DNA from: Candidatus Magasanikiibacteriota bacterium
Lineage (GTDB): Bacteria; Patescibacteriota; Patescibacteriia; Magasanikbacterales; UBA922
DNA: 58,489 nucleotides
Direction: 5' to 3'
Assembly (NCBI GenBank): GCA_042218065.1
Contig: JBDGRL010000087.1
Span: forward strand, 1-58,489
This document shows positions 7,061 to 50,267 of the stretch, one piece after another (positions within the stretch are counted from its first letter, which is position 1; each line of letters starts with the position of its first letter). The position numbers and the translations under genes were made by a program. The notes under the pieces are model-generated. The model was not told where the DNA came from, searched no databases, and saw nothing but the letters and a program-made list of their open reading frames with translations.

Positions 7061-7171
7061 AGTTTTTATCAGCTGAGATTATTTTTGTATTCTTTCTTGA
7101 ACTGAAATTTATATCTATAATTGAAAAAATTTTAATCTCTAGTTTATACGTTGTTTTACTATATTGAATAT

Positions 7172-7287
7172 TTGAGTGTGAGGGTTAGAAAATTTAATCA
7201 TGAGGAGTGATTTATTTGTTTCAATGTTTGAGCAAAGCGAGTTTTGAAACAAAAATGACGAATGATTAAATTTTACCGAACACTCAA
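7172..7287. repeat. Long imperfect inverted repeat (~116 nt hairpin) in the cysD-cysNC spacer
   Basis: Three paired segments. TTGAGTGT/ACACTCAA is the outer one. AAAATTTAATCAT/ATGATTAAATTTT is a perfect 13 bp. TTTGTTTCAA/TTGAAACAAA is the inner one. Confidence 0.75.
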
Positions 7288-7317
7288 TCAAAAAAATATA
7301 TTAAAGCAACGCATAAA

Positions 7318-29888: not shown

Positions 29889-30647
29889 ATGATAGAAGCG
29901 TATAAAGAAAAAAACTTTGAAAAATTTGAAGAGAAAATAGGTATCGAGTTTGAAAATAAAAAATACTTAGTACAAGCTTTTGTTCACCGGTCCTTTATAA
30001 ATGAATCTCGAGATTTTCCACTTCATCATAATGAGAGACTGGAGTTTCTGGGTGATGCTGTTTTAGAGCTGTCAGTAACTGAATATCTATTTCGCAATTA
30101 TCTAAACCCGGAAGGTGAGTTAACCAACTGGAGAGCAGCTCTCGTCAACGCTGAGATGTGCTCTAGAGTAGCAAGAGAGTTAGAAATGAACCCATACCTA
30201 TTCCTATCTAAGGGGGAAGCCCAAGATGAAAACTCGAAAGCAAGAGATTACATATTAGCCAATGCAATCGAGGCGCTTATAGGTGCTATTTATTTAGATC
30301 AAGGTTTTGAAACAGCTGATGAATTTATCCGAGAGTGGATTGTAAATAAACTTCCGGAAGTGCTGGAGCAAGGTCTGTGGATGGATCCAAAATCCAGATT
30401 CCAAGAAGCAGCACAAGAAAAAGTAGGAATCACCCCTACATACGACGTACTGCAAGAAGAGGGTCCTGATCATGATAAATCCTTCTTGGTTGGGGTATTC
30501 TTAGATGATAAAAAGATAGCAGCAGGTACAGGCTCAAGTAAGCAAGAAGCACAAGAAAATGCAGCAAATAAAGCAATGAAAAAGAAAGGATGGGGTGGTC
30601 CCGATGTAAAAGTAAAAGAAAGAGAGCCTGGAGATCCATTGGGTTAA
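29889..30647 (+). CDS. rnc: Ribonuclease III
   Basis: NERLEFLGDAVLEL catalytic signature and a C-terminal dsRBD (GSSKQEAQENAANKAM). Confidence 0.95.
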   Translation: MIEAYKEKNFEKFEEKIGIEFENKKYLVQAFVHRSFINESRDFPLHHNERLEFLGDAVLELSVTEYLFRNYLNPEGELTNWRAALVNAEMCSRVARELEMNPYLFLSKGEAQDENSKARDYILANAIEALIGAIYLDQGFETADEFIREWIVNKLPEVLEQGLWMDPKSRFQEAAQEKVGITPTYDVLQEEGPDHDKSFLVGVFLDDKKIAAGTGSSKQEAQENAANKAMKKKGWGGPDVKVKEREPGDPLG

Positions 30648-30694: not shown

Positions 30695-30767
30695 GCACCG
30701 TTAGCTCAGTCGGTAGAGCAGGAGTCTCTTAAACTCAAGGTCGCAGGTTCGATTCCTGCACGGTGCA
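30695..30767 (+). tRNA. tRNA-Lys (anticodon CUU)
   Basis: Acceptor GCACCGT/ACGGTGC, D arm GCTC-AGTCGGTA-GAGC, anticodon loop CTCTTAA, T arm GCAGG-TTCGATT-CCTGC. No CCA is encoded. Confidence 0.9.
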
Positions 30768-30774
30768 CTGGTTC

Positions 30775-30833
30775 GATACACTTCTTCTGGCTTGCTGGTC
30801 AGCAAGCTGAAGGCAAACCAGAAGAAGTGTATC
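30775..30833 (+). other. Long perfect hairpin just 3-prime of tRNA-Lys, enclosing a partial copy of the element A motif
   Basis: 16-bp stem GATACACTTCTTCTGG / CCAGAAGAAGTGTATC. The interior contains CTGGTCAGCAAGCTGAAGGC, which shares the 12-mer CAAGCTGAAGGC with 29073-29084. Confidence 0.7.
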
Positions 30834-30928
30834 TGCAACTTATTTTCTTTAAAAATAAAGCAGTATTTGCAATTTTTTGTTTTCAATTATAATCAGACAA
30901 ACTGTGATATAAAATATTCAAAAAATAT

Positions 30929-31002
30929 ACACCCGTAGCTCAACTGGATAGAGCGGCTGACTTCGGATCAGCAGGTTGGGGGTTCGACTCCTCCCGGGTG
31001 TA
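30929..31002 (+). tRNA. tRNA-Arg (anticodon UCG)
   Basis: Acceptor ACACCCG/CGGGTGT, D arm GCTC-AACTGGATA-GAGC, anticodon stem GCTGA/TCAGC with loop CTTCGGA, T arm GGGGG-TTCGACT-CCTCC. Confidence 0.9.
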
Positions 31003-31030
31003 CTTTTTGCTTGTTTAAGTAAAAAATATA

Positions 31031-32362
31031 CTACTGGTCTTCTCTTAATCTATCTTCTATAAAAAGCTTATAACCAATTACATAAACTACCAGAGAAATA
31101 AGCATAGCATCTAAGGTAGAAATAGTAGTAAGCTTAAACAGACCCAAGCCATTAGATTTAACTGGCATTGTCATATAACCACCTATACTACCAATAAACC
31201 AAGATATGAAAGGGAAGATGCGAAGATTAGATATCTTATCAATATTTTCAAATTTATAGAATTCTCTATTAAAAAGATAGAAATCAGCTAGATAAACACT
31301 AGCTATCGGAGGAATAGCTACACTTAAGAGTAACAACCAAGACTGGAATTGGTCTAATATTCCCCAAATAGCAAGTAGTGTCCCTGCTATACCCACAATT
31401 ACCGTAATCTGCCACTTTTTAAGAGGAAATATTGTATTTAGTCCTAGAGAGGAAACATAAAGATTATTATCATTAGTACTCCAAGAAGCTAAAAACAGAA
31501 CTATAAAACCAAAAGTCCCCAAACCCAAAGAATACATTACTTTATTAAATTCCTCCGCTCCTGTAGGTGCTGCTGCTATTGCAGATATTATCAAGAGAAT
31601 TGGCAACATAAGAAGATGACCAAATGCTGCTGCACCTGCTCCCTGTTTTGGTGTTTCTGCGTACCTAGTTAAATCTGGCTTATAAACACTAGCTGCTATT
31701 ACACTTCCTACCACCATAGAAATGGCTGCACCTGTACTTAACGAACCGCCACTCATAAGAGATGATATAACACCGCCCTGCCCGAAAGCCTTATATAGAG
31801 ACAAAATTAATAATATACCTAAGAGTGGAACTGAAAATAGGCTTAACTTATGTAAACCCTTAAACCCAAATATAGCCGTTAGTATCATCAGCAGCCCTGA
31901 AAATCCAATTATTAAAGATTGATTAATTGATATCGAGAAAGTATTGCTAAGAATTTCCTGTAAAGAAAACCCAAAGACCCCAAGGTTGATGCCTACCCAA
32001 CCAAACATTGTCACTGCTATAACTAAAGCTACTACCTTTGCCCCACTTTTTCCGAAAGTAAATTTAGATATCATATAAGTCGAAAGTCGTGTCTTTGCCC
32101 CTACCATTGAAGTAGGGATAGTTATGAGAGTAACAATAGCAGTGCCTGCAAGAGTGGATATAATTAAGCCACTCAGAGTTAATTTATGCCCTAAAACAAA
32201 ACCTAGAAGAAGTATTGGTATTGCAATAATAGAACCAACAAATACTACTCCTATATTGAACCAATCTTTAGTTTCAGAATCTGGGACAGGTCTGTCAGCG
32301 TAATCCTCTAATAATTCTGATTTTTTACTATCTGGCCTAGAAGTGTTTGTACTTTTAGACAC
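31031..32362 (-). CDS. NCS1-type (purine/cytosine/allantoin-like) permease
   Basis: ~12 TM helices and a GTG start. The overall layout resembles CodB/NCS1 transporters; family assignment is by eye only. Confidence 0.5.
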   Translation of the reverse strand: MSKSTNTSRPDSKKSELLEDYADRPVPDSETKDWFNIGVVFVGSIIAIPILLLGFVLGHKLTLSGLIISTLAGTAIVTLITIPTSMVGAKTRLSTYMISKFTFGKSGAKVVALVIAVTMFGWVGINLGVFGFSLQEILSNTFSISINQSLIIGFSGLLMILTAIFGFKGLHKLSLFSVPLLGILLILSLYKAFGQGGVISSLMSGGSLSTGAAISMVVGSVIAASVYKPDLTRYAETPKQGAGAAAFGHLLMLPILLIISAIAAAPTGAEEFNKVMYSLGLGTFGFIVLFLASWSTNDNNLYVSSLGLNTIFPLKKWQITVIVGIAGTLLAIWGILDQFQSWLLLLSVAIPPIASVYLADFYLFNREFYKFENIDKISNLRIFPFISWFIGSIGGYMTMPVKSNGLGLFKLTTISTLDAMLISLVVYVIGYKLFIEDRLREDQ

Positions 32363-32455
32363 AAAATTAAGTTTATTAACTTGTACCTTAATTTTTTATA
32401 TTTTACAATTATAACTTTATTTTACCAAATAGAAAGATTTTGTTTTTAACCATTT

Positions 32456-32484
32456 TAGTTTGAACCCGTTCCACTAGAGCGTAC
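32456..32484 (+). repeat. tRNA-3-prime-end-like direct repeat R1
   Basis: TAGTTTGAACCCGTTCCACTAGAGCGTAC. Confidence 0.85.
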
Positions 32485-32556
32485 TGGTCTTTTTTTGTTT
32501 TAATTTGGGGGAAGTATTTTTAACCCTTTGTGAAAACATCCGAGTTCAGAGCTAAA

Positions 32557-33681
32557 CTATTCTACCTTAATTACTTTATCCTCAGTTACCTTCTTCAACT
32601 TTGCTTCCTTTTCTTGAGGGTAGTTACTTTCAGTAAAATCAATTGGTCCTGATGCACCCTCAAAGGAAACAGATTGAAGACCTTTAGAAATACCCTTGCT
32701 CGTAGCTTTGTCAGAACCCTCAATAGCTTTCTTAATAGCATACACCGCATCATAAGCTGTACCTGCTGCTATTTGTGGTTCTTTTCCGTGAAAATTCTTG
32801 AATTTATTTACAAAATCTTTGCTTGGTTGAGGAAAGTCAAAGAAGTAGACCCCTTTAGTCTCCTTTTTAGTTAGCTTTCCAGATTCAAGAAAACCTGCTA
32901 ACTTCTCGTGAAATAATGGAATAGCTTCTAGGTCTAGTTCTCGATATCTTTTTACAAAGTTTATATAATCAGCCTGATTAACCACTACTATTACTGAATC
33001 AGAGTCTTTTTGTTCAACTTTAGCTAGAACAGTACGCAAGTCATTGTTGTCTTTTTTGGGTAAAAAGATAGTATCCAATAGCTCACTATCTTCTTTTTTC
33101 AAAGCTTGTTTAAAAGCATCTACATAGGCTTTGCCCCAGCTATTATTTACTGAGATAATTACAGCATCTTTAACATTTCTCTTTTGAATAAACTTTCTTA
33201 CCGCCTTAATACTACCTTTAGCTGCTGGAAAAGTAGTATAGAAATAAGAACTATTTCGTGCCTGTTCAGATAAACTATCAAAAGGAGCACCTGCAGAAAT
33301 CATTGGAACCCCTTTTCTATTAGCTATTGGAATTACTGGATTGGCTAGAAAATCCCATTGTAATCCAACAATAGCAGAGACATTATTTACATTTATTAGC
33401 TTCTTTACAGCACTTACAGTCTTTTTAGGTTTAGTTCTGTCGTCTTCATAAATAGCTTTTATCTTCTTTCCATTTACACCGCCGTTTTTATTTATTTCAT
33501 TGATGGCCAGCTCTACTCCTTTTTTAATATTCTGCCCATAAAAAGAACCTGCTCCTGTTAGGCTAGAAACTATCCCTAACTTTATTTTTTCTTGTTTATT
33601 CTGTTTTTTGTTAGCGCTACAACCTGCTCCAAGTAAAATTATTAAAGAAAATATAGCAAGAAAGGATATTGCTTTTTTCAT
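32557..33681 (-). CDS. Lipoprotein, ABC-transporter substrate-binding protein of the Leu/Ile/Val-binding (type I PBP) family; orphan
   Basis: Lipobox LLGAGCS and LGIVSSLTGAGSFYGQNIKKGVELAINEINKNGGVNGKKIKAIYEDD. No permease or ATPase genes are adjacent. Confidence 0.8.
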   Translation of the reverse strand: MKKAISFLAIFSLIILLGAGCSANKKQNKQEKIKLGIVSSLTGAGSFYGQNIKKGVELAINEINKNGGVNGKKIKAIYEDDRTKPKKTVSAVKKLINVNNVSAIVGLQWDFLANPVIPIANRKGVPMISAGAPFDSLSEQARNSSYFYTTFPAAKGSIKAVRKFIQKRNVKDAVIISVNNSWGKAYVDAFKQALKKEDSELLDTIFLPKKDNNDLRTVLAKVEQKDSDSVIVVVNQADYINFVKRYRELDLEAIPLFHEKLAGFLESGKLTKKETKGVYFFDFPQPSKDFVNKFKNFHGKEPQIAAGTAYDAVYAIKKAIEGSDKATSKGISKGLQSVSFEGASGPIDFTESNYPQEKEAKLKKVTEDKVIKVE

Positions 33682-33909
33682 AGTAGTTTCACTAGTAAAT
33701 AAGACTGTCTTTAGCTTAGGATAAAGACATCAGTTAATCAAATAGACTAAAAGGGTTATGTTTCTGTAGAACCATCAAAATATAATATAAAAACCATAAG
33801 AAACGGTGCCTTTAAGTTAGTTAAATTTCCTCTTTGGAAGTAAAATATAACCCTCAATAAGGACTATTAAACTTAAGTTTGTAAGAAGATATTGTTTACT
33901 AATCACATT

Positions 33910-33938
33910 TAGTTCGAACCTGCTCCACTAGAGCGTAC
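33910..33938 (+). repeat. Direct repeat R2
   Basis: TAGTTCGAACCTGCTCCACTAGAGCGTAC. Confidence 0.85.
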
Positions 33939-34053
33939 GATACTATTCTTACTTTAATTTAGGTAAATTTATTTTAACCACCTTACTTACCTTCAAACTT
34001 TTTTAGAATCTAAAGAAATTATTATTTAAAATCTTATAAACAATATTTTTAAG

Positions 34054-34062
34054 TTATCCACA
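34054..34062 (+). promoter_or_regulatory. Perfect DnaA-box 9-mer
   Basis: TTATCCACA. A one-mismatch copy TAATCCACA lies at 34120-34128. Confidence 0.4.
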
Positions 34063-34068
34063 TATTTT

Positions 34069-34104
34069 ATAGATGTAACATAGATGTAACATAGATGTAA
34101 CATC
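34069..34104 (+). repeat. Iteron-like tandem repeat, 11 bp x 3.2
   Basis: ATAGATGTAAC repeated perfectly at 34069, 34080 and 34091, then a partial ATC. Confidence 0.9.
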
Positions 34105-34132
34105 TAAGGGAATTTTAATTAATCCACAGACC

Positions 34133-35692
34133 TCATAAAAAACTTTGTTGCTTATCCTCATCGTTGCTATTGTTTGAGTTCTTTGCTGGAGAAGACAAAT
34201 CTTCTTTTTCAAAAATTTCACTATTTAAGGTGTACTTTACATTAGGGCCTTTTTCTCCAATTCTATCAACAATACCTTCGTTTAATAAACCGTTTAACTT
34301 CCTAATTACAGTTTGTCTTGACTTACCTATTTCTTTTGTAAAATCAGAAGTAGAACCTTCATCGTTTCTCGTAAGAAACTCTATTATCAATCTTTCATCA
34401 GGACCCAAGCCACTAATTACTTCTTGTTCAATCTCCCCTATTTTTTCAGCCTCTTCTTTTTGTGTCCTGTTTTCGATATCATTGTATAAAGTTATTGTAA
34501 AATTGATAGCTTCTTTATCATTATTTAGCTCGGGTTCTGGCAGACCCATATTAACCATCTCATCTTTTATGCGGTCCATACCTTCACTTGCATTTTTAAC
34601 GTAACCGAGGCATAAAAGTGATTGCATAATAAGAGGATTGCGGGCATAAGTTTTTTTATAGATATTGTTGAGAGTCACAACATTCGGTAAATTCCCTGGA
34701 CTTTGTACTTCTAGTCGATCATCAAACATTCTGATAAAAATAAATTCATTTTTTAGATTGTAAGCTCTGTGAGCAACAGCATTAACGATAGTTTCTTTCC
34801 AAGCAAAGCGAGGGTATTCTAGCTTTGTTGTAAATTTACCACTTTCTTCATCTAAAAAACTAAATTCTTTAATTTGATTTTTAATCATTGCAGAAGCTTG
34901 CTCTATTTGTTGTGGTAAAGGGCCTGTAAACTGTTCATCCTTTATTATATTTGAGTTTTCGCCTGTTCTAACTTCATTTCCTTCATAACGAATAAATCTA
35001 ATTTTAGCTCCAGGTATGAACTCTTCAGGGTTATCATAAAAGAGGAGCATAGCCGCATTTGTAACATCAACACCTTCCTTAGATTCTTTACCAAGACCTC
35101 TATGCAATAAGGTTTCTTGAGGAGATGGAGTGCTATCTAACGAATCTCTGCTAGCCCACTTTTCTTTAAATTTATTTAGTTCATCTTTATTCAAATCTTC
35201 TAAACTAACTTGAGGTTCAATTTCTTTCTCAAATCTACTCTGTCCTTTATCTTGTTTCATCAATCTCTTCTTTTCAGGGGAAAGTTTATGTGTTTGGTCC
35301 CCTATTCTTTCATAAGCAGTTCCATCTGTTAATTCTATAACCCTATCTCTAGAATAACTAACATAAAATAAAATTATCTTATCATCTTCCCCTTTTTCAT
35401 TTTTTACCTCCATTTCCCTCCAATTAACTTTTGCCTCCTGACAATATTCATTTGCTGACTGCTTTACCTTATTTGCTCTACTTTCACCAACTTCATTAAA
35501 ACCTTCAACCTTAGAGTCATCTTTTATACCAACCACAACTAAACCACCTTCAACACTACTGTTTGCAATTGCTGAAAACTCCTTAGCTAATTTTCTTTGG
35601 TGAACCTTTGCACTCTTCTTTTCAAAATTGCTACTTTCTTCTCTTTTAACTAAGGTTTTAAGATCAGGGTTATTGTATAATTCTTTACTCAT
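34133..35692 (-). CDS. AlbA_2 (Schlafen-like) DNA-binding domain + HATPase_c_4-like domain + C-terminal winged-helix protein
   Basis: EESSNFEKKS ... AIANSSVEGGLVVVGI, then NAVAHRAY ... LEVQSPGNLP ... ARNPLIMQ ... SEGMDRI, then a wHTH (SRQTVIRKLNGLLNEGIV). Confidence 0.7.
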   Translation of the reverse strand: MSKELYNNPDLKTLVKREESSNFEKKSAKVHQRKLAKEFSAIANSSVEGGLVVVGIKDDSKVEGFNEVGESRANKVKQSANEYCQEAKVNWREMEVKNEKGEDDKIILFYVSYSRDRVIELTDGTAYERIGDQTHKLSPEKKRLMKQDKGQSRFEKEIEPQVSLEDLNKDELNKFKEKWASRDSLDSTPSPQETLLHRGLGKESKEGVDVTNAAMLLFYDNPEEFIPGAKIRFIRYEGNEVRTGENSNIIKDEQFTGPLPQQIEQASAMIKNQIKEFSFLDEESGKFTTKLEYPRFAWKETIVNAVAHRAYNLKNEFIFIRMFDDRLEVQSPGNLPNVVTLNNIYKKTYARNPLIMQSLLCLGYVKNASEGMDRIKDEMVNMGLPEPELNNDKEAINFTITLYNDIENRTQKEEAEKIGEIEQEVISGLGPDERLIIEFLTRNDEGSTSDFTKEIGKSRQTVIRKLNGLLNEGIVDRIGEKGPNVKYTLNSEIFEKEDLSSPAKNSNNSNDEDKQQSFL

Positions 35693-35870
35693 ATATTTTT
35701 TTTATTTCTATTCAATTATAAAAAAATTGGAGGTAATGAGCAAGACTAAACTTAAATCATTTAATACCCGTAATTCAATGAAGGTATGAACGTTATGAAC
35801 TTTACAAAAGGTTTAAAGGTATTCAATACGTGTTAATTTATACTAGTAACCACCTCTTTCTTTTTAACTT

Positions 35871-35899
35871 TAGTTCGAACCTGCTCCACTAGGGTGTAC
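35871..35899 (+). repeat. Direct repeat R3
   Basis: TAGTTCGAACCTGCTCCACTAGGGTGTAC. Its 3-prime part and flank (GGGTGTACTTTT ... AGTAAAAA) match the tRNA-Arg 3-prime end and flank. Confidence 0.85.
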
Positions 35900-36072
35900 T
35901 TTTAACTAAATTTAGTAAAAATAATGTTTTAGGCCTTGACAAAGGGTTATTTTTTTTATATACTTTACTGATATCCTTTATCTTGGGATATTGTTCTTTC
36001 AAAAACAGTGTGTGGCATTTAGTTTATATGCTTAGTAGATTAAGTACCGCACACTGCGAATCTTGACTCGAA

Positions 36073-36600
36073 ATGAAAGGGCAGGCCGTGAAAAATATCG
36101 TGATCGGAATTATCGTAGGGATCATAGGAACCGTGTCAATTGGGACGCTGGGGCTAGTTTACTACCTCGAAAATGCAGCCCCTTCCACGAGGCAACTGGA
36201 GAAGGAACGCTTAGCCATCTGTATGGTCCTTAACCGAGACCAGAAAGAGGGGCTGGACTGTGCTTTGAAGCTAGCCCAGTTGGCAGCACGAAGTGAAAAC
36301 TACTCCCAGTTCGGACAGCTCAGGGGTAAAAAAACCCTGAGAAAGCTTGTTGGAGTTAGAGTTGAGGGGTACTTCAATACACTCCATAGAAGGTATCCCT
36401 CAAAATGCGAAACCAATGTAGAAACCAGAAAGGAGGCAAAAGAGGCATTGGAGTGCATCGAGAAAGAGATGAAAAAAATCAACAAAAGAGGACGTAAAAC
36501 CAGACAAAGAATTAAGTCAATCGAACCACTGAAAGACTACCCACTGCCGCCTGAAGTAACCATCGAAATGGAGCTGGAGGGGGGCGCCGACGCAGAATGA
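36073..36600 (+). CDS. Hypothetical membrane-anchored protein in a locally GC-rich segment
   Basis: N-terminal TM IVIGIIVGIIGTVSIGTLGLVYY. Codon and GC usage visibly differ from neighbours. A promoter TTGACA-N-TATATA lies at ~35935. Confidence 0.55.
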   Translation: MKGQAVKNIVIGIIVGIIGTVSIGTLGLVYYLENAAPSTRQLEKERLAICMVLNRDQKEGLDCALKLAQLAARSENYSQFGQLRGKKTLRKLVGVRVEGYFNTLHRRYPSKCETNVETRKEAKEALECIEKEMKKINKRGRKTRQRIKSIEPLKDYPLPPEVTIEMELEGGADAE

Positions 36601-36683
36601 ACGTCGGCGACAAATCACGCGATCGACCCGCTCGGCGTTTTGTCGCTCGGGCGGGTCGGTCACAACCTACACTACAAACCTTA

Positions 36684-37265
36684 TCAGGGTTTGCTTTTTT
36701 TATTTTGCCTTCTTTTTATATTTATAAATATAGCTAAATAATAACCTACCAACAAAAATAACACATAACTAGAGAAGTTTGAGTGTATAAATAGCATATA
36801 TATCATTCCATCTATATCAGAACCATAGTCATAATATGGTTGAAGTGGGGCAAAATAATGCATAATGATAATTGCAAAAAATAGCGCTATACCTACAAAA
36901 ACCACATCTCTGATAAAATACAAGTCTTTATCCCTATTTTTTATATCTTTAATTCTTGGAAGTATTAGGTAATTAAAAGCTGCAATTATAGAAAAAATGA
37001 TGAACCAGATAATTATACCCAGACCTGTATTAAATATAATTTGAGGGTTGTCATATCTACAATCTCTTAGAGTGTCATATCTTCCTTCCAGCGCTTTGTT
37101 TATTGGGCCGCTTTTGTCTTGTTGTTTTACCTGACAGATATTATCTTCTTGATTATAACCATAAAACGGTGGTGGTATTTCTAAAGGGCTACTAAATATG
37201 ACAGTAGGAAAAAACAATAACACTAATGAGTATAAAATACTTATTTTTTTAATCTTGTTTATCAT
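36684..37265 (-). CDS. Hypothetical multi-pass membrane protein
   Basis: Signal/TM at the N-terminus plus three further hydrophobic helices. No motif recognised. Confidence 0.45.
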   Translation of the reverse strand: MINKIKKISILYSLVLLFFPTVIFSSPLEIPPPFYGYNQEDNICQVKQQDKSGPINKALEGRYDTLRDCRYDNPQIIFNTGLGIIIWFIIFSIIAAFNYLILPRIKDIKNRDKDLYFIRDVVFVGIALFFAIIIMHYFAPLQPYYDYGSDIDGMIYMLFIHSNFSSYVLFLLVGYYLAIFINIKRRQNKKSKP

Positions 37266-37269
37266 TGTT

Positions 37270-37836
37270 TTAGTTTAAATTTTCTAACGCTTCCAACTGT
37301 CTGGAATTAAGTTTATGAATGCTCAACTTATCAGAACCCTCTTTTAAGAAGCTAAGTTCTTTAGACACTTTCTTAACCTTCTCCCAGTCAGGTATTGTGT
37401 ATGTATTGCCTACAGTAGGCAGCTTACTACAACTAAAGTATCCAGCTTTATTCCAATGCTCTGGCTCGATTTCAAGTAATTTATATTCATTTTTACCTTT
37501 TATTTTTAATAAGAAAAACTTTAGTCCTTTTTCTCGATATAGATAATCAACCTCATTTGGATCAACCTCTCTTAAAGTACTCCACCTATCCCAGTAGATA
37601 TTATATTCTGAAGAAAAACCAGCACCTAAAGAAAAAACTTTTAAATCTTTGCCTGATTCATTAATTATAGTTGCATATTCTTGTGTATTTGGGCCACTTG
37701 CTATGTGCTGCAATACAAAATCAGAACCCATAATTAACGATGCTATATATGCAAAATAAAGAATGAATCCTAACAAGGTTATTACAAACAAAGTCATTAC
37801 TGCTTTCCATATTTTATCTATAATATTAGAAGTCAT
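37270..37836 (-). CDS. Hypothetical membrane-anchored protein
   Basis: N-terminal TM VMTLFVITLLGFILYFAYIASLIMG. Tightly linked (4-nt gap) to the downstream membrane protein. Confidence 0.45.
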   Translation of the reverse strand: MTSNIIDKIWKAVMTLFVITLLGFILYFAYIASLIMGSDFVLQHIASGPNTQEYATIINESGKDLKVFSLGAGFSSEYNIYWDRWSTLREVDPNEVDYLYREKGLKFFLLKIKGKNEYKLLEIEPEHWNKAGYFSCSKLPTVGNTYTIPDWEKVKKVSKELSFLKEGSDKLSIHKLNSRQLEALENLN

Positions 37837-37951
37837 TTAATTTATTCACATAAAAACAAAAATTAGCTTACTTAATTATAACTACAAAATAATAATTATA
37901 AAAATTATACACTAGAAAAATTAACCAAAGGTGTTGTTTTATTGCCCAATT

Positions 37952-37980
37952 TAGTTTGAAGTTCGTGGGCTAGGGTGTAC
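37952..37980 (+). repeat. Direct repeat R4 (diverged)
   Basis: TAGTTTGAAGTTCGTGGGCTAGGGTGTAC. Confidence 0.65.
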
Positions 37981-38133
37981 AACACCCTTACTTATATACT
38001 AAATTAAAGCAAAAAATAAAGAATTTCATAACCCCCAAACCTTTTGTTAAGATTTGGAGCCTTTTTGGTTGTTAAAACTTTCTTACATCTTGTTCTTTTG
38101 GTAAGTTAGAAAAACTAAAAAAGAAGTAAAAAT

Positions 38134-38982
38134 ATGACCTGGCTATTATCATCTCTTAGTTCAGCTTTATTTGATAGTTTTAAGCTATTAACAATAAAAG
38201 ACAAAGTAGATAAAGAATACAATGAATACTTTATTGCATTTATAGTTGCTCTATTTACCAGCGTTGTCTCATTAGTTCCAACCCTGTTTTTGGATTCTCA
38301 AATATTTACACCAGAAACTGATTATCTCCTTGCTTTAGCTATAGTAGTTTCTATAAACTTAATTACATTAGTTTTAACTACCCAAGCAAATAATTATTCT
38401 GATTTGTCTACCCTGGCCCCCTTGTATAGCTTCAGTCCATTATTCGTGGCCTTAACCGCTTTTTTTATTTTAGGAGAAAAGATAAATACTATTGGTTTTC
38501 TTGGAATAGCGTTAATTGTTTCTGGAACTTTTGTAGTGAATAAAAATAAGAAAGACAAATATTTTAAAAATATCAATATAGATTTAGGTCAAATAATGAT
38601 AATTCTATCTACTATCTTATGGTCGATTTCTTCTGTGTATTTTAAAGTGGGGATGAATGAATCTTCTTCTTTTGGGTTTGTGTTTGTGGTTTATAGTCTG
38701 ATCAGTATAATTCTTTTCATTGTGATTATGTTTAAAAAAGTAAAAATAAAAGAAAATTTCAAAAAAGTAATAAACGTTGGGCTTACATCTGCACTCACTT
38801 CCATTTTTCAGTGGTATGCTGTATCAATAGGGCCTACAGCTTATGCTCTAGCTGTTAAAAGAGCTAGCTCAATATTTAGTGTAATCTGGGGTAAACTATT
38901 CTTAAAAGAAAAGAATTTTATATTAAGAATATGTGGTGCTTCAATAATCTTTATTGGGGTGTTATTAATTGTTTATGCTTGA
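38134..38982 (+). CDS. EamA/DMT-family transporter
   Basis: Ten-TM layout with two EamA-like halves. Confidence 0.6.
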   Translation: MTWLLSSLSSALFDSFKLLTIKDKVDKEYNEYFIAFIVALFTSVVSLVPTLFLDSQIFTPETDYLLALAIVVSINLITLVLTTQANNYSDLSTLAPLYSFSPLFVALTAFFILGEKINTIGFLGIALIVSGTFVVNKNKKDKYFKNINIDLGQIMIILSTILWSISSVYFKVGMNESSSFGFVFVVYSLISIILFIVIMFKKVKIKENFKKVINVGLTSALTSIFQWYAVSIGPTAYALAVKRASSIFSVIWGKLFLKEKNFILRICGASIIFIGVLLIVYA

Positions 38983-39116
38983 TAAGTTTTTAAACAACTT
39001 ACTGAAATTGTTGCCTAGAATGATTCTAATAACAACAGGTATTACTTAGACACCTAAATAACTGCTCTACCTTCTAATTCCTTCAGTTGGTAGTAGTAGG
39101 ACAGTGTTTCTTCTTT

Positions 39117-39149
39117 AAGGCGGTTCCAAATATCGAACTCTAGGTGTAC
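39117..39149 (+). repeat. Direct repeat R5 (degenerate)
   Basis: ...TATCGAACTCTAGGTGTAC retains the CGAAC and CTAGGTGTAC blocks. Confidence 0.45.
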
Positions 39150-39180
39150 AACTCTATTTTTGCCTTAATCAAATTAAAAT

Positions 39181-39867
39181 TTATTTTTCTAATACCTCTT
39201 TTATTATTTCCTGTATTTCTTCATTACCAACCCACTCAGGACCAAAGCGGTTTTTAAGCAACCAATCTACATTGCCATATGATTGCCGTAAAAACTTAAG
39301 AGCAGCAATAAGCTTATCTTTATCTTTACAAGAACCTCTCTGATAAGCCCTAATAAAATCATAAATTACGTGCGGCTCACAATCAGGTTCAATTTTGGAG
39401 CCTTCTTCTCTACTTGCAATCCAAGCTTCTATTTTGTTTTTATTTTCTTTAATAGCTCCGATAACTCGATGCATACCATCAAACACACTAAACTTACTCT
39501 CTTGATGTTTACGCAATAAAACTGGAATATCATCATATTCAACAGTATCAAATTCTTCTGCAATTTGTTTATCTTTTCTAATAAGTTCTTTTAGTTTTTC
39601 AGGTGATCTATTTGCCTTGCTTATTATTATTTCATTCCAGTCTGGATTGGTTCCAGTTAATCTAAGTTTATTTATATCAACTTCTCTATTTTCCCAGTCA
39701 ACATTAGGGTCTGTAAATGCATCGCCTATCCAATTCAATGTAGCTCCCGACCACATAACAAGTAATTCTTCGGGGTTTTGATAATCCTCTACTGATACTT
39801 TCTCAGCTTCTACTAAGCCCTTAAGATATTCTTTGTCTGGAAAATTAGTGCTTGTAAAGTGAGGCAT
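39181..39867 (-). CDS. Hypothetical protein with a possible ParB/sulfiredoxin-like nuclease fold
   Basis: VFDGMHRVIGAIKENKNKIEAWI resembles the DGxHR ... I motif of ParB-like nuclease domains. Confidence 0.35.
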   Translation of the reverse strand: MPHFTSTNFPDKEYLKGLVEAEKVSVEDYQNPEELLVMWSGATLNWIGDAFTDPNVDWENREVDINKLRLTGTNPDWNEIIISKANRSPEKLKELIRKDKQIAEEFDTVEYDDIPVLLRKHQESKFSVFDGMHRVIGAIKENKNKIEAWIASREEGSKIEPDCEPHVIYDFIRAYQRGSCKDKDKLIAALKFLRQSYGNVDWLLKNRFGPEWVGNEEIQEIIKEVLEK

Positions 39868-39962
39868 ATGATATATTTATGCTTGATTACTTTTCTATTA
39901 TGTAAAAAAAATAAAGATTTTAAAAATGTATTACATATTATCTTTTCTTACTTTGACCATTC

Positions 39963-39991
39963 TAGTTCGAACCTGTTCTATTAGAGCGTAC
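39963..39991 (+). repeat. Direct repeat R6
   Basis: TAGTTCGAACCTGTTCTATTAGAGCGTAC, ending 5 nt from the stop of the APC permease gene. Confidence 0.8.
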
Positions 39992-39995
39992 TACA

Positions 39996-41381
39996 CTACT
40001 CTTCTCGATCAGAATAAATATCTTCTGCTGCTTCTTCTATCTCCTCTTCCACCCCCTCAACAACTTCCGTAACTTCCTCTCTTTCCATATGGAAAAACTC
40101 AATTACGAAGAGGGCTGCAAAAATAATACCAATTATCATAAGGGTGTGAGGGGCCTGCTGATAAAGGTGGTATCCCACTATCGGAAGAGCTCCCAATGTG
40201 GCTATAAGAGCGACCAACGGAATCCACTTATTGGAATTTGTCTTTTTGTAAAGTTTTAAATTAGCATAGTTAGCTGCTGAATCCGCAATTAGAAATGCAA
40301 CTGAGCCAAATTCAGTAATCTGCTCTAATGAGCCAAAGGCCGTAAACAATGCAGTAGCCCCTGCCATAAGCAAAACGGAATAAGTAGGTATGCCCTTCTT
40401 ATTCCGGAAAGAGAATAATCTAGGGAGCTCTTTTTCAGTAGTTATCTTATGGGTCAGACGGGAAGTACCGAATAGTGTAGCGTTAATCCCGGATGACGTA
40501 CTTTTGATTGCAGAAAGAATTACCAAAATGAAACCGATGCCTCCCAAGAACGGTATGTTCGATACGGCCGCAGCCAGAGCGGTTTCTTTATGCTGAATCA
40601 GCTGTTCCGGGCTGAGCTGGAGAGTGGCCATGAAAGAAACGGAGACATAGATCAATATGGCTATGGCAACGGCGATGTAGGTACCTCGGGCCAAGTTCTT
40701 TGCAGCGTCTTTAATATCGTTATAGTCGTAAGTTAAAAGTTGAAACCCCTCGTAAGAAACAAAAATTATTGCAAAGGCAGCAATTGGATCCATCACACCT
40801 TTGTTGAAGAAATTAAGCTCAGTAATGGAGCCGTCATAAAAAACAATACCCAACACCGCTAAACTCATTAAAATTAAAATCTTCAAATAGACCATAATGT
40901 CCTCAAAAATCCCTGACGTTTTCACTCCTATCAAATTAATACCCGCTATAAACCCCACGATACCGACGGATATGACAGGTCTCAATATCTGAGGAAGTTC
41001 AATAGAGAATATCTCGCGCAATGCGGTTAATGTGAAAGCCCCGAAAGCAAAAGCATACATCGCCATCACTCCTACGTATCCGACTATCAAAATCCAGCCG
41101 AAATAACCGGCTATGTGATTATTGTCCACCGTGTGCTCTATAAAAGAAAAAACTCCGCCATTCTCCTCAAAATAACAAGTAAGTTTAATATAAGAATAGG
41201 CCGTAAGGAGGGTAATAATCCCCGCTAAAATATAAGAAAGAACGACTGCATTACCGGCCTGGTTCATCGCTACTCCCAAAACCGCGTAAATACCGCCGGA
41301 GACAATACCTCCGACTCCCATAGCTACAACCTCTTTAAGGCCAAGTTTTGATTTTTCGCTACTTGCTTTAGAAGACATAGA
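39996..41381 (-). CDS. APC-superfamily amino-acid permease
   Basis: 12 TM helices and the N-terminal motif VAMGVGGIVSGGIY. The start was set to the internal ATG (MSSKASSEK). Confidence 0.7.
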   Translation of the reverse strand, partial: SMSSKASSEKSKLGLKEVVAMGVGGIVSGGIYAVLGVAMNQAGNAVVLSYILAGIITLLTAYSYIKLTCYFEENGGVFSFIEHTVDNNHIAGYFGWILIVGYVGVMAMYAFAFGAFTLTALREIFSIELPQILRPVISVGIVGFIAGINLIGVKTSGIFEDIMVYLKILILMSLAVLGIVFYDGSITELNFFNKGVMDPIAAFAIIFVSYEGFQLLTYDYNDIKDAAKNLARGTYIAVAIAILIYVSVSFMATLQLSPEQLIQHKETALAAAVSNIPFLGGIGFILVILSAIKSTSSGINATLFGTSRLTHKITTEKELPRLFSFRNKKGIPTYSVLLMAGATALFTAFGSLEQITEFGSVAFLIADSAANYANLKLYKKTNSNKWIPLVALIATLGALPIVGYHLYQQAPHTLMIIGIIFAALFVIEFFHMEREEVTEVVEGVEEEIEEAAEDIYSDREE

Positions 41382-41553
41382 TAGGACTTTTAGGGTTCTT
41401 CTTAATTTTATACAACAATAATTATATAAGTTCAATAAAAATAAGTACAGCTTTTTATTTCTTGGCTAGAAATTGACAAATTATACTATATTTGTTTTAT
41501 TGAAGTTGAGCTTCGTTCAATAAACAATACCCAATGGAACGGAGGTAGAGGCC

Positions 41554-41823
41554 ATGTTCCACGATAATAAAATAGAACATCAAATTGAAGCAAGACTGGT
41601 TATATTTATCTCTAGCCCACTTGCATTCGGGCTTTTAATATTCTCTATATACTACGATGAATTATGGATTGCAATCTTTTCAGTCTTACTACTGATTCTG
41701 CTGTTATATTTTGTCTTTCTTCCGATCATTCCGACTACTTGGGACAAAATCAAAAAATGGCTTAGATCAGAAAAAGAGCCCGATAATATTGTGGATGCAA
41801 GTAATCAATTCAAAGAGGATTAG
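41554..41823 (+). CDS. Small two-TM membrane protein
   Basis: GGAGG SD with promoter TTGACA at ~41474. The terminator hairpin is CCCTGCAG/CTGCAGGG at ~41848-41878. Confidence 0.5.
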   Translation: MFHDNKIEHQIEARLVIFISSPLAFGLLIFSIYYDELWIAIFSVLLLILLLYFVFLPIIPTTWDKIKKWLRSEKEPDNIVDASNQFKED

Positions 41824-41991
41824 CTATCGACTTCATTTCTGTTCATTACCCTGCAGATTTGACCCTGCAGGGTTTACTTATATTTTTAATTTCATTGGGT
41901 ATTTTTTAAACACTGTCTTTCTAAGCTTGACAAAATCACTCATATTCAGTTAAATAAAAATAGAGTTGCTACTCCATTCAAGGAGGTTAAG

Positions 41992-42138
41992 ATGATCAAA
42001 TTAGTTCTGTTTGTATTTTCACTCTTTGCAGTTTCATTCTTGGTTTTTTGGTTTTATCTAGCATATAAGTTCGCTTATCTCTTAGATCTTCTAATCAAAA
42101 ACCACACCAGCTTCCAGCACTTTTCCTCTGACGCTTAA
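41992..42138 (+). CDS. 48-aa hydrophobic small protein (unlisted ORF)
   Basis: MIKLVLFVFSLFAVSFLVFWFYLAYKFAYLLDLLIKNHTSFQHFSSDA. It has an AAGGAGG SD and promoter TTGACA (41927)-17-TTAAAT. The terminator is GCAGGATT/AATCCTGC plus a T-run. Confidence 0.55.
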   Translation: MIKLVLFVFSLFAVSFLVFWFYLAYKFAYLLDLLIKNHTSFQHFSSDA

Positions 42139-42406
42139 TTGATCTTTTAGAATACCAATCTCTAATCTTTCCGTACTTTTCAACAGCAGGATTAACAATC
42201 CTGCATTTTTTTCTTTTTAAAATAAATCTATAAAATTAATTAAACTGAAAAATTGTCACTACAAACAGATTCGAGCTCAATAAAGAATGAGATTAATTTA
42301 ACCGAGATTAATTTAACCTTGACAAAACTTCAAAATAATCATATATTCTACCCCCATACTGAAAGCTTCAGTATGGGGTTAATCTCTACCGAACCCAGAG
42401 GAAGCC

Positions 42407-42592
42407 ATGCCAAAGCCAATGAATGAAGAAATATTGAATTTAATACGAAAATCACACTCCAAAGATGAACTAGAAAGAAGACTAAAGCTTACAGACTATA
42501 CTATTCACGAGATTATTTGGGGGTATTTCATCTCTGTCGTATTCAGCCAAGATGGAGAAAAAGATTCTGTAACTGGATTGATCCGAGGTTAG
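42407..42592 (+). CDS. 61-aa hypothetical protein
   Basis: Promoter is TTGACA (42319-42324)-17-TATATT. The transcript is predicted to begin with a perfect 12-bp hairpin (42352-42378). Confidence 0.45.
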   Translation: MPKPMNEEILNLIRKSHSKDELERRLKLTDYTIHEIIWGYFISVVFSQDGEKDSVTGLIRG

Positions 42593-42644
42593 AAAGCCCT
42601 AAACTTTCGCACGCTCTTTTAGCGACTCTCCGCAGGAGGAAACT

Positions 42645-42746
42645 ATGAACTGGAAAACAATTTTCCAGCCAATTGTTTACGCAATTATCCTCTCTCTTAT
42701 CGGAAGCATGTACCTAATTGGTCTTTTTTTTGGAATAAAAAAATGA
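42645..42746 (+). CDS. 33-aa hydrophobic small protein (unlisted ORF)
   Basis: MNWKTIFQPIVYAIILSLIGSMYLIGLFFGIKK, with a GGAGGA SD 5 nt upstream and a following hairpin GACCCCACTC/GAGTGAGGTC. Confidence 0.45.
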   Translation: MNWKTIFQPIVYAIILSLIGSMYLIGLFFGIKK

Positions 42747-42858
42747 CCCCACTCAAAGCACAAGAGTGAGGTCACAAATGTTCAGCTTTTAGTTTGACAT
42801 GGCTGTCAAATTAAAAGGTGCACATTCACAATCGACCCCAAGACAACAGGAGGGAAAC

Positions 42859-43500
42859 ATGTTTGACGCTAACCTTATTAGTTTAGAGGGACCAGAAGGA
42901 AGCGGAAAAACTACTAACAAAAATAAAACTGTAGAATTTTTAAAAAGCAAAGGCTATGAGGTAATTACCGGACGAGATCCAGGCGAAACAGAGATTTCTG
43001 AAGAGATAAGAGAGATAATCCTTAAGAATAGAGAATACGCTGAAATGACTAAAGATGCTGAAGTACTGCTTTACGAAGCAGCAAGATCCCAGCTAGTAAG
43101 TAACTTCTTAAAACCAGCATCAAAAAACAACGACTTCATAGTTTTAGATAGATACTTCGATTCTACAACAGCTTACCAAGGATATGGCAGAAGAATAGAT
43201 CTCGAATTCATCAAGATGTTGAACAAAAGAGTTACTTCTGGTATTACACCGGATAGGACCTACTTGTTAGATGTTTCACCAGAAATAGGACTGAAACGTT
43301 GTGGAAAAGACGAGTTTTCAGAAGATGGCGGAGATAGAATGGAACAATCCTCACTAGATTTTCACCACAGAGTAAGAGATGGGTTTCTTAAGATTGCCGA
43401 TGGCAACAACAGAATAAAAGTAATAGACACCGAGAAAAATAATGAAGAGCAGGTCTTTAAAATCGTAGAAGATGACTTACGAGAGCAGTTTGACATTTAA
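42859..43500 (+). CDS. tmk: Thymidylate kinase
   Basis: ISLEGPEGSGKTT P-loop and DRYFDSTTAYQG. The start was moved to the ATG preceded by GGAGGG. Confidence 0.9.
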   Translation: MFDANLISLEGPEGSGKTTNKNKTVEFLKSKGYEVITGRDPGETEISEEIREIILKNREYAEMTKDAEVLLYEAARSQLVSNFLKPASKNNDFIVLDRYFDSTTAYQGYGRRIDLEFIKMLNKRVTSGITPDRTYLLDVSPEIGLKRCGKDEFSEDGGDRMEQSSLDFHHRVRDGFLKIADGNNRIKVIDTEKNNEEQVFKIVEDDLREQFDI

Positions 43501-43709
43501 ACCTATTCTTCCAACATCAATGTAGAAAAATATGAAAAATAAAGAAAAAATGATAAGGTGATTGCGTGCTATTTGATCTTTAAATAAACCAAGGATTTAC
43601 CTCCGGCTCCTCGGTCGGAGGTGTTTTTATTTGACAAAAAAGGAAAAATTTAGTTTAATCTTACTGTAAATTCGCCCTTTAAAGTACCTTCAACAACACA
43701 AGGCAGAAA

Positions 43710-44024
43710 ATGAAAAAACTGCTCAAAAAAACAGAAACCTTAAGGGAAGAGGTCGAAAAACTGCTTGAAGAGATGGTAGTTTGGTTGGTTTCTCTCCCGT
43801 TGATGGTAATAATAATTCTAGTAGCAACTACTATAGTAGCATATTGGTATTATTTGAAAGTAAAGCACTGGATAAAGAAATACTTTTCGATTACATGCGA
43901 TAAAATAAAATCTGTGACAAATTATATTCCAACACCACAGGTTTTTGCTTTCCCATCGAGTTCAATTGTTTATCACAAAAATGGGAAGAAGACTGAACAT
44001 CCACACCAAAAGGAGGATATATGA
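43710..44024 (+). CDS. Small single-TM protein
   Basis: Promoter is TTGACA (~43632). TM segment is VVWLVSLPLMVIIILVATTIVAYWYY. The stop overlaps the next ATG (ATGA). Confidence 0.45.
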   Translation: MKKLLKKTETLREEVEKLLEEMVVWLVSLPLMVIIILVATTIVAYWYYLKVKHWIKKYFSITCDKIKSVTNYIPTPQVFAFPSSSIVYHKNGKKTEHPHQKEDI

Positions 44025-44140
44025 AGACTGTTCTTTTGGTTATAGCAACAACTTTAGTGCTATACTTGAGCTACAGGACTTCAGTAAAAAACCCACCTAC
44101 TTTAGGTGGGTTCATTTTTTTAATGAGATGTTTAGTTTTT

Positions 44141-46234: not shown

Positions 46235-46240
46235 ACCAAA

Positions 46241-48973: not shown

Positions 48974-49127
48974 TCAAATGTAATAAATAAAAAGGTAATC
49001 AATTGCTTATTTATTATACCACAATCACCGAGGGAGTATAATTTTTGTAAAGTTATATGGATCTAGAAGTTAGTTATTTTTCGAGAGGTTATTAAGAATT
49101 CAATGGCTATAAAATTTGAGGATTATT

Positions 49128-50267
49128 TTAGTTATTTTTATAAACTTCTAATGTATCCTTAGCTAGCTCTTGCCAAGAATAATTATCCAGCAAGGAGTCA
49201 ACCTGTTTTAGTTTTTCTTTTCTCAGCTCTTCATTTTCCAATACAGTTTCTATATCTTTAGAAAATTTATTCGGGTTTGTAGTGTCGGTATATATACCTA
49301 CATCTCCAAGCACTTCCGGGATCGATGCTTTCTTAGAGGTTAAAACCGGAGTTTGTTCTCTAAGTGACTCAAGTAGCGGCAGCCCAAATCCTTCATAAAG
49401 ACTAGGAAACACAAACAGCGCCGCATTATCGTAAAGTGATATTAGTTCTGCATTTGAAACCTTTCCGATATATTTTACATCAGGAGCTTTCTGAAACAGT
49501 TCAGAATTTGTAAGTTTGCTATAAAAATAATCCTTCTTGCCGGCTAGAATTAATTGATACTTTTTTTGTTTATTTTTGTCTGTATCTTCTTTTTTGAATA
49601 TCTTCCACGCCTTAAGTAGATTCTTTAGGTTTTTGTGGGGATAGGCGGATCCTACGTAAAAAACGAAAGGCTTATCGACACCGAATTTAGACTCTAAACT
49701 AGAAAAATCCTCAGAGCTATCCTCTGTAGAAAAAGGTGCTTGATAAGTCACTGAAATTTTATCTTCAGAAATATGAAAATTATCTAAAACGTCCTCTTTA
49801 GTAAACTTAGATGGAGTTATAACTGCTTTGGAATTTGCAACTGCTTTTTTTACTACATATCTATGAATTTTATCTTTTAGCCAATATTTTACCCGCCCGT
49901 GGGTGGTAGCTTCTGGTCTTGGAAAATGAAACATTATCAAGTCATGGATAGTCACCACAAAATCACCACTATAAAAAACAGGTATGTTCCAGTGAGGAAA
50001 GTGAACTAAATCAGGATCAACTTTATTAATTATTTTAGGCATTTTTATTTGCTCGGCAGTACCATACCAATACACATCTGCTTCAATCTTATTGAAATTC
50101 TCTCGGTCTGGTTCAAACTCACCCCAGTTTTCCTGCTTCATAAATAAAAAAAACTCCATACTTCCAGGAGCTTCTGATTCTAAATTTTTAACTAATTGTT
50201 GGATATAGCGCCCGATGCCAAAATTAGAGCTCATCATACGGGCGTCTATTGCTATTTTTTTCTTCAT
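49128..50267 (-). CDS. GT4-family (GT-B) glycosyltransferase
   Basis: C-terminal EGFGLPLLESL (E-x7-E region) and YVGSAYPHKN. Confidence 0.8.
   Translation of the reverse strand: MKKKIAIDARMMSSNFGIGRYIQQLVKNLESEAPGSMEFFLFMKQENWGEFEPDRENFNKIEADVYWYGTAEQIKMPKIINKVDPDLVHFPHWNIPVFYSGDFVVTIHDLIMFHFPRPEATTHGRVKYWLKDKIHRYVVKKAVANSKAVITPSKFTKEDVLDNFHISEDKISVTYQAPFSTEDSSEDFSSLESKFGVDKPFVFYVGSAYPHKNLKNLLKAWKIFKKEDTDKNKQKKYQLILAGKKDYFYSKLTNSELFQKAPDVKYIGKVSNAELISLYDNAALFVFPSLYEGFGLPLLESLREQTPVLTSKKASIPEVLGDVGIYTDTTNPNKFSKDIETVLENEELRKEKLKQVDSLLDNYSWQELAKDTLEVYKNN

Follow-up and report, generated by a model that had tools for sequence, protein, structure and literature searches.

How does a bacterium of the Patescibacteria, or Candidate Phyla Radiation (CPR), come by its accessory genes? 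To our knowledge, conventional plasmids, ICEs (integrative and conjugative elements) and prophages are rarely recognised in this group, and the route by which accessory genes are gained is largely unknown. The question is raised by a 58,489-nt stretch of DNA from Candidatus Magasanikiibacteriota bacterium (contig JBDGRL010000087.1, assembly GCA_042218065.1), the whole of which is called the window here. Downstream of its tRNA-Arg(TCG) gene lies a lineage-specific block of transporters and accessory genes, anchored at the tRNA, whose internal boundaries are marked by a conserved direct repeat related to the tRNA 3′ end. In the reading to which we give a probability of about 0.5, small accessory-gene modules were inserted site-specifically, one after another, at the tRNA-Arg(TCG) hotspot, and the five repeats are the att-type junctions that these events left behind. 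The array is most likely a known kind of island, tRNA-proximal and grown by serial insertion, with unusually small and integrase-free modules.

The repeat has five clear copies of roughly 31–80 bp, all direct, with a core of 31 nt. Occurrences of a 29-mer within it, allowing up to 3 mismatches, were found at 32456, 33910, 35871 and 39963, where shuffled sequences give an expectation of 0, and a more diverged fifth copy at 37952 was picked up by a repeat finder. An nhmmer profile made from the five copies matches only those five in the 58,489 bp (E 1e-12 to 1e-15; the next match has E>1). Similarly, the 10-mer TAGRGYGTAC occurs five times, always inside the five copies, against 0.2 expected. 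The original prediction had counted six copies. The sixth, near 39117, was missed by the profile and resembles R4 only, and marginally (CTAGG-TGTACAAC, p ~0.03 uncorrected); it was rejected as a confirmed copy and is listed as a candidate, R5.

32443–32525, + strand: R1, core 32454–32484; TTTTTAACC at 32443–51 and at 32517–25; beta-type right half (AGAGCGTAC and a TACT..TCTT..TTAAT flank)
33896–33982, + strand: R2, core 33908–33938; TTTTAACC on the right at a distance of 34 nt, like R1; left 24 nt those of R3; beta-type right half
35847–35921, + strand: R3, core 35869–35899; TTTTTAAC and TTTTAAC abut the core; alpha-type right half GGGTGTAC, with a flank, homologous to the tRNA-Arg 3′ end and flank
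37921–38005, + strand: R4, core 37950–37980; most diverged clear copy, with GTTCGTGGG in place of the middle CCTGCTCCA; alpha-type right half
39120–39150, + strand: 'R5', doubtful degenerate candidate ATCGAACTCTAGGTGTACAAC; not significant
39951–39991, + strand: R6, core 39961–39991; core stops 5 nt short of the amino-acid permease gene's stop codon; beta-type right half

The five clear copies all have the orientation of the tRNA and are intergenic, as had been claimed for the whole set; they stand at gene or operon boundaries within 32.4–40.0 kb, with start-to-start spacings of 1454, 1961, 2081 and 2011 nt. Pattern scans for the repeat, exact or degenerate, gave 0 matches in GTDB representative genomes, JGI metagenome contigs and IMG/VR, and the profile gave none in 172 Patescibacteria loci (1.9 Mb), so that the 29-mer, for which related genomes had been suggested as the place to look, has no copy in these collections. 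When the R2 unit was compared by blastn with phage and plasmid collections, only chance AT-rich matches were returned. Exact-protein look-ups of window genes returned only Logan contigs of the same sequencing run, identical to the window. One of them, L082 (run SRR28304479), corresponds to window positions 30739–38125 and is 100% identical through R1–R4; therefore the array is not an artefact of one assembler, though the reads are the same. After its unbroken run through R1–R4, L082 stops at window position 38125, 9 nt before the EamA start codon, and this unitig break could reflect a population variant or branch, or low coverage.

The place of the array in the chromosome is defined by the following features.

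30695–30768, + strand: tRNA-Lys (CTT), found by ARAGORN and Rfam; conserved backbone neighbour of RNase III
30929–31003, + strand: tRNA-Arg (TCG), found by ARAGORN and Rfam; intact, 65.5 bits; proximal anchor of the island
31004–31030, + strand: 3′ flank of tRNA-Arg, the 'X block' TTTTTGCTTGTTTAAGTAAAAAATA; homology to the R3 right flank, and weak homology to the R4 right flank
39996–44140: distal, repeat-free part of the lineage-specific segment, with an APC amino-acid permease (39996–41435; G+C content at third codon positions, GC3, 0.42), small open reading frames (ORFs) and a thymidylate kinase (42799–43500)
44141–50267, − strand: conserved backbone of DUF11, DUF4012 and GT4 glycosyltransferase genes, found directly after tRNA-Arg in relatives

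The RNase III gene at 29889–30647 has its best relatives, at 64–73% identity, in metagenome-assembled genomes of Candidatus Magasanikbacteria and other Patescibacteria, among which the NusB–RNase III–tRNA-Lys–tRNA-Arg block is conserved. Six distinct relatives had enough flanking sequence for comparison (L003, L004=L094, L007=L097, L008, L099 and L100). In these, tRNA-Lys and tRNA-Arg are followed within 50–1300 nt by homologues of 44141–46234 (DUF11), 46241–48973 (DUF4012) and 49128–50267 (GT4). Since the tRNAs run straight into the homologues of 44141–50267 there, the 13 kb from 31004 to 44140 are a lineage-specific insertion, with the tRNA-Arg 3′ end as its proximal edge. The repeat array fills the proximal 9 kb of the insertion and the distal 4 kb contain no repeats. 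None of six tested array genes (31031–37836) has a homologue in ~160 RNase III neighbourhoods, the gene for a ParB/Srx-fold protein (39181–39867, see below) matches only loci fetched through its own homologues, and the tRNA-Arg loci of the relatives hold no analogous arrays. Strain-level relatives were sought through RNase III in genomes and metagenomes, where the best match had 73% amino-acid identity and was too remote for strains to be compared.

The relation of the repeat to the tRNA is most evident in R3. As first reported in the original prediction, R3 has GGGTGTACTTTT and a downstream AGTAAAAA block in common with the end and flank of tRNA-Arg, which amounts to 38 nt ungapped at 76%. 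A gapped alignment spans the T-loop, the 3′ end and 25 nt of flank of the tRNA, with a score of 44 compared with 20.9 ± 4 for shuffled sequences, none of 500 shuffles being as good. The rows of this alignment are GTTCGA--CTCCTCC-C--GGGTGTACTTTTTGCTTGTTTAAGTAAAAA for tRNA-Arg and GTTCGAACCTGCTCCACTAGGGTGTACTTTTAACTAAATTTAGTAAAAA for R3. By this alignment, R3 is truly homologous to tRNA-Arg at its 3′ end and flank. The search for a matching tRNA gave the same gene: when 108 tRNAs from all loci were compared with the repeats, tRNA-Arg of the window itself matched best. It had been held that the repeats are not simple displaced copies of this tRNA; that statement is too strong, though three small indels (5 extra nt), common to all copies, do separate the repeat family from the tRNA-Arg 3′ end. 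Because these insertions are common to all copies, the copies go back to a single sequence that had diverged before it was multiplied, and not to independent decay.

The proposed likeness of the repeat to a T-loop and an acceptor strand rests on GTTCGAAC and on the homology between R3 and tRNA-Arg. The tRNA covariance model does not recognise the repeats, even on a 40-nt slice permitting truncated matches, and Rfam gave nothing at the repeats at either gathering or permissive thresholds. Repeats that are themselves tRNAs or tRNA pseudogenes were rejected on the ground that no cloverleaf is recognised by the covariance model.

The halves and flanks of the copies form a mosaic. R1 and R2 have a common 72-nt unit at 76% identity, in agreement with the extra right-flank likeness reported for this pair. 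R2 and R3 are identical in their left 24 nt, while their right ends differ (AGAGCGTAC vs GGGTGTAC) and their right flanks are unrelated. By right ends and flanks, tRNA-Arg, R3 and R4 make up an alpha group and R1, R2 and R6 a beta group; the grouping of right flanks has z 5.9 for R1–R2 and z 3.3 for R3–R4, and the link of the R3 flank to the tRNA flank rests on the ungapped repeat and the gapped alignment described above. A half-and-flank mosaic of this type is what a crossover within the core, between CTAG and GTAC, predicts, and judged from the two sequences the R2/R3 mosaic looks recombinational.

A second motif, TTTTAAC, accompanies the cores. Five of its 12 plus-strand sites in the window lie within 70 nt of cores, on both sides, where 0.2–0.6 would be expected. 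Relative to the cores, TTTTAAC(C) is placed at −10 and +34 in R1, at +34 in R2 and at −7 and +1 in R3. It brackets R1 and R3, and R2 imperfectly, with bracketed lengths that differ (65 nt in R1 vs 31 nt in R3). It could serve a complex att site as an accessory or arm-type site, or it could be a target duplication. Another bracket had been proposed for the AlbA_2 cassette, consisting of the 9-mer TAACCACCT. Both of its occurrences, at 33975 and 35847, are present, but these 2.4 kb contain 95 different recurrent 9-mers, and the pair, not significant alone, was discarded as independent evidence. Further along, at 42289–42347, a perfect 2 × 15-nt tandem of GAGATTAATTTAACC abuts a near-consensus promoter (TTGACA-17-TATATT); the tandem contains TTTAACC, the motif flanking the repeat cores.

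The modules between the repeats consist of 1–3 genes and are 1.5–2.1 kb long. Their contents are those given in the original prediction.

31031–32362, − strand: module 1, NCS1 cytosine/purine-type permease; stop codon 28 nt from the tRNA-Arg 3′ end; GC3 0.25
32557–33681, − strand: module 2, orphan Peripla_BP_6 substrate-binding lipoprotein with lipobox LGAGC
34133–35692, − strand: module 3, AlbA_2 (Schlafen-like) protein with HATPase_c_4 and a C-terminal helix-turn-helix (HTH)
36073–36600, + strand: module 4, ORF without family; GC3 0.54
36684–37265 and 37270–37836, − strand: module 4, two membrane-protein ORFs without family
38134–38982, + strand: module 5a, EamA-family transporter
39181–39867, − strand: module 5b, ParB/Srx-fold protein; small family, found only in Patescibacteria

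Of the eight array genes, seven have a GC3 of 0.22–0.26, compared with 0.31 ± 0.04 in 35 backbone genes (Mann-Whitney p ~0.001), and the array genes are thus compositionally distinct from the backbone. The outlier is the ORF at 36073–36600, with its GC3 of 0.54. Upstream of it lie a near-consensus promoter, TTGACA-17-TATACT (35936–35964), and a long hairpin (~36006–36056), and the ORF may be a very recent foreign gene or no protein gene at all. The product of 39181–39867, described earlier as ParB-like, has no Pfam or PDB sequence match. Nevertheless, a profile of 30 homologues weakly matches ParB, and an AlphaFold model (predicted local distance difference test score, pLDDT, 94.8) was matched by Foldseek to ParB, PadC, Noc, sulfiredoxin and SbnI at probabilities of 0.96–1.0; the protein is accordingly predicted to have a ParB/Srx fold. 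On IMG/VR viral contigs the cargo genes have no counterpart apart from one weak partial match. Two small features of the modules may be added. At 34069–34103, between the AlbA_2 gene stop and R2, a perfect 3.2-copy tandem of the 11-mer ATAGATGTAAC is found just downstream of the stop codon. The NCS1 gene abuts tRNA-Arg and the amino-acid permease gene abuts R6, and the two genes are alike at their 3′ coding ends (31031–31055 and 39996–40015; …REDQ* vs …DREE*, z 4.3); this likeness is either coincidence or part of a common junction sequence, and it is not relied on here.

Homologues of the cargo were also found beside tRNA genes in other Patescibacteria loci. The ParB/Srx homologue stands directly after tRNA-Leu in L087 and L088, and not in L083, L084 and L090. 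The closest NCS1 homologue (L173, 55%) lies 160 nt after a truncated tRNA-Val. The next one (L175, 53%) has a tRNA-3′-like fragment ~25 nt past its stop codon, on the other strand, an arrangement that mirrors module 1, with its 28 nt between the NCS1 stop codon and the tRNA-Arg end. A third (L174, 40%) has no adjacent tRNA. Altogether, roughly 4 of 8 contexts of cargo homologues are tRNA-associated vs ~10% expected, in a small sample of short contigs, which tend to end in tRNAs. In L006 and L010, no integrase was found among the neighbours tested. When partial copies of tRNAs were sought in 2 Mb of Patescibacteria loci, one other case emerged, L121 (9537–9800), in which a 26-nt direct copy of the 3′ end lies 160 nt downstream of the gene; the tRNA is again tRNA-Arg(TCG), downstream of RNase III. 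The two copies in L121 are followed by flanks that resemble each other and look like terminators, as they would in an att duplication at this locus. It was further observed in L087 (9874–11343) that the ParB/Srx-fold gene stands between tRNA-Leu(GAG) and tRNA-Val(TAC), and that small ORFs and tRNAs alternate after it; tRNA-Leu and tRNA-Ala of this locus have the same 19-mer T-arm, GGAGGTTCAAATCCTCTCA.

How might such an array have been assembled? Under serial insertion, several successive events would have taken place at, or just downstream of, the tRNA-Arg(TCG) 3′ end. At each junction the left arm would be the element-derived TTTAGTTCGAACCTGCTCCACTAG with a TTTTAACC-type motif before it, the crossover would fall in a short stretch at (A/G)G(C/T)GTAC, a match to the final bases of tRNA-Arg, and the right arm would come from the neighbouring, older module. 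Internal junctions would then be attP-like hybrids made of the left arm of the element, the core and the right arm of the neighbour. The recombinase, presumably a tyrosine integrase, would act in trans from elsewhere in the genome, or would have been lost, and the array may therefore now be fixed.

Serial capture at a tRNA hotspot, which was the central proposal of the original prediction, is supported in part, by the absence of the insertion from the six relatives, by the composition of the array genes, by the R3 homology, by the mosaic of halves and by the cargo homologues next to tRNAs. Its lack of a recombinase was also correctly anticipated: integrase, resolvase and transposase domains are absent from the window ORFs of 120 aa or more, which were the ORFs covered by the domain scan. 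Several observations weigh against this reading. No integrase, excisionase or other mobility gene was found in the 58-kb window, and between the modules there is no room for pseudogene debris. R3 alone is individually significant against the tRNA, and the three common indels and the silence of the covariance model are likewise unfavourable. A distal attR or further copies of the tRNA-Arg end were sought, including at the 44.1-kb end of the insertion, and none was found. L082, the one further assembly of the locus, does not differ from the window across R1–R4 and contains no sign of polymorphism or excision. The relatives are distant (RNase III identity ≤73%), and the insertion could be old and could stem from other rearrangements. 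Finally, the distal part carries a housekeeping gene, the thymidylate kinase gene (tmk), so that the 13 kb need not all be foreign.

Some of the same data can be read differently. If the repeat were a cis-regulatory site (operator or activator) of a local minus-strand regulon, bound for instance by the AlbA_2-HTH protein, and not a recombination scar, the minus-strand gene start that is found to the left of all five clear copies, 68–229 nt away, would be accounted for. Promoter-like hexamers between repeat and gene (R1, R4 and R6), the degeneracy of R5, the sole candidate between convergent genes, and the presence of a putative HTH regulator in the array point the same way. Yet 7 of the 9 genes of the region are on the minus strand anyway, which gives the 5/5 upstream placement a p of ~0.28, and the promoter-like sites are fewer than shuffled sequences would yield (36 vs 46.5). 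The spacing from the repeat varies, both to these sites (26, 37 and 48 nt) and, over the range just mentioned, to the start codons. Moreover, the conserved 31-nt core, the 72-nt homology of R1 and R2 and R3's homology to the end and flank of the tRNA argue for common descent and not for a convergent binding site, and we regard the regulatory explanation as unlikely. We are similarly doubtful of a small non-autonomous mobile element, resembling a repetitive extragenic palindromic (REP) sequence or a miniature inverted-repeat transposable element (MITE), that was inserted repeatedly into TTTTAAC(C) targets in AT-rich intergenic DNA. The perfect 9-bp direct repeat TTTTTAACC that brackets R1, the TTTTTAAC/TTTTAAC pair abutting the R3 core and the imperfect pair at R2 do resemble target-site duplications, and the repeat is intergenic and species-specific. 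However, the length between the putative duplications is inconsistent, as given above for R1 and R3, and no consistent terminal inverted repeats or palindromic hairpin were found in the copies, only short TAGT/ACTA pairs at variable spacing. The five copies are not dispersed in the 58-kb window but lie within 8 kb in one orientation. Their left and right halves assort independently, whereas those of a transposed unit should co-vary, and the homology to the tRNA-Arg end and flank is left unexplained.

That homology would follow directly if the repeats were decayed 3′ remnants of tRNA gene copies, from a former tRNA-Arg array or segmental duplications, among which unrelated genes accumulated later with no dedicated recombination system. 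GTTCGAAC(C)TGC resembles a T-loop and T-stem, R3 matches the 3′ end and flank, and single genes do alternate with real tRNA genes in L087. We consider this origin very unlikely nonetheless: nothing tRNA-like stands upstream of the T-loop-like part, the covariance model has no match, the same three indels in all copies lead back to one ancestor that was already not a tRNA, and duplication alone leaves it unexplained that each gene boundary has one repeat while the genes are unrelated. The remaining explanation, the integron-like variant of the original prediction, is a chromosomal integron cassette array without integrase (cluster of attC sites lacking integron-integrases, CALIN), in which the repeats would be attC sites. 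It agrees with one direct repeat per interval of one to three genes and with the lack of an integrase nearby. An attC site is an imperfect palindrome (R''-L''...L'-R') that forms a single-strand hairpin, a complete integron comprises intI, attI and Pc, and integron cassettes are mostly promoterless and co-oriented. No attC-type hairpin common to the copies was found in 111-nt segments of either strand (folding z −2.0 to +1.3), and the alignment consensus folds at −2.5 kcal/mol with 0 covarying pairs. The RYYYAAC/GTTRRRY ends (R'/R'' consensus) are absent from the repeats, which have a conserved GTT followed by C/T-G-A-A and not by RRRY, and no intI with attI and Pc is present in the window. 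Array genes are on both strands and have promoter-like sites of their own, for example the one at 35936–35964 described above. The CALIN reading is effectively refuted by these structure tests, and little if any credence is left to it.

Among documented systems, the closest to serial insertion at tRNA-Arg are the genomic islands and tycheposons of Prochlorococcus, in which tRNA islands arise by serial integration and contain scattered partial-tRNA remnants and nutrient-uptake cargo (Hackl et al., 10.1101/2020.12.28.424599). Both occur in a streamlined host genome, the island begins on the 3′ side of a tRNA, and the direct repeats inside it, which have the orientation of the tRNA, are related to the tRNA 3′ end. 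In both, the cargo is mostly nutrient transporters (here NCS1, the binding protein, EamA and the amino-acid permease) and att remnants occur without an adjacent integrase. Tycheposons, unlike the present locus, have tyrosine recombinases of a specific lineage and, in many cases, a replication module (10.1101/2020.12.28.424599), and neither was found between 31004 and 44140. Their att remnants are plain partial tRNAs of ~40 nt, whereas the repeat here has three indels, a left arm of its own and TTTTAACC motifs. The modules here are only of 1–3 genes (1.5–2.1 kb), and the phylum differs.

A second comparison is with tandem accretion of cis-mobilizable elements (CIMEs). These are integrase-less, att-flanked elements known, from work on Streptococcus ICESt1/3, beside a functional ICE or integrative and mobilizable element (IME) that supplies the integrase. 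The array resembles them in its integrase-less segments between direct att-like repeats at one integration site, with internal junctions that look attP-hybrid. It differs in that no integrase-supplying ICE or IME is seen here, and we know of no conjugation machinery in these bacteria. With integron arrays and CALINs it has in common one short repeat per gene cassette and a recombinase absent from the neighbourhood. The lack of attC structure, consensus ends and attI/Pc/intI, the mixed gene orientation and the sequence-conserved, apparently tRNA-derived nature of the repeats set it apart from these.

What is unusual in the present case is the combination of 1–3-gene modules, the absence of recombinase genes or debris, the composite site and the host phylum. 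Therefore a trans-acting cassette-capture reading is kept open beside serial insertion, as an outside chance. It would be a Patescibacteria system, integron-like in its working but built differently, in which a recombinase encoded elsewhere inserts and shuffles one-gene circles with their own promoters. The att sites would be double-stranded, of ~80 bp, with a core derived from the tRNA-Arg 3′ end and TTTTAACC accessory motifs, and would stack beside tRNA-Arg. If it were true, such a system would be a mechanism by which accessory genes are gained in a phylum where hardly any mobile elements are recognised. More generally, if the repeats are active recombination sites, the 31-nt core offers a concrete and testable handle on gene flux in the phylum; if they are no more than old scars, what is seen here is an ordinary composite island whose host is unusual.

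A few other observations were made in the window. Between tRNA-Lys and tRNA-Arg, a 21-nt inverted repeat (30775–30833; 95% complementary, 17-nt loop) may act as a hairpin for termination or processing. At 1699–1748 and 4346–4395, a direct repeat of 50 nt with 78% identity is found in intergenic DNA, upstream of two minus-strand genes, which encode a 528-aa FGE-sulfatase-domain protein (85–1671) and a 270-aa ORF product (3505–4317); it may be a common promoter or leader. Patescibacteria are usually described as metabolically minimal. The region 4418–8223 encodes a sulfate-activation set consisting of a CysQ-like inositol monophosphatase, a fused GTPase/adenosine 5′-phosphosulfate (APS) kinase (CysNC-like) and a PAPS_reduct-family protein (CysD/CysH-like).

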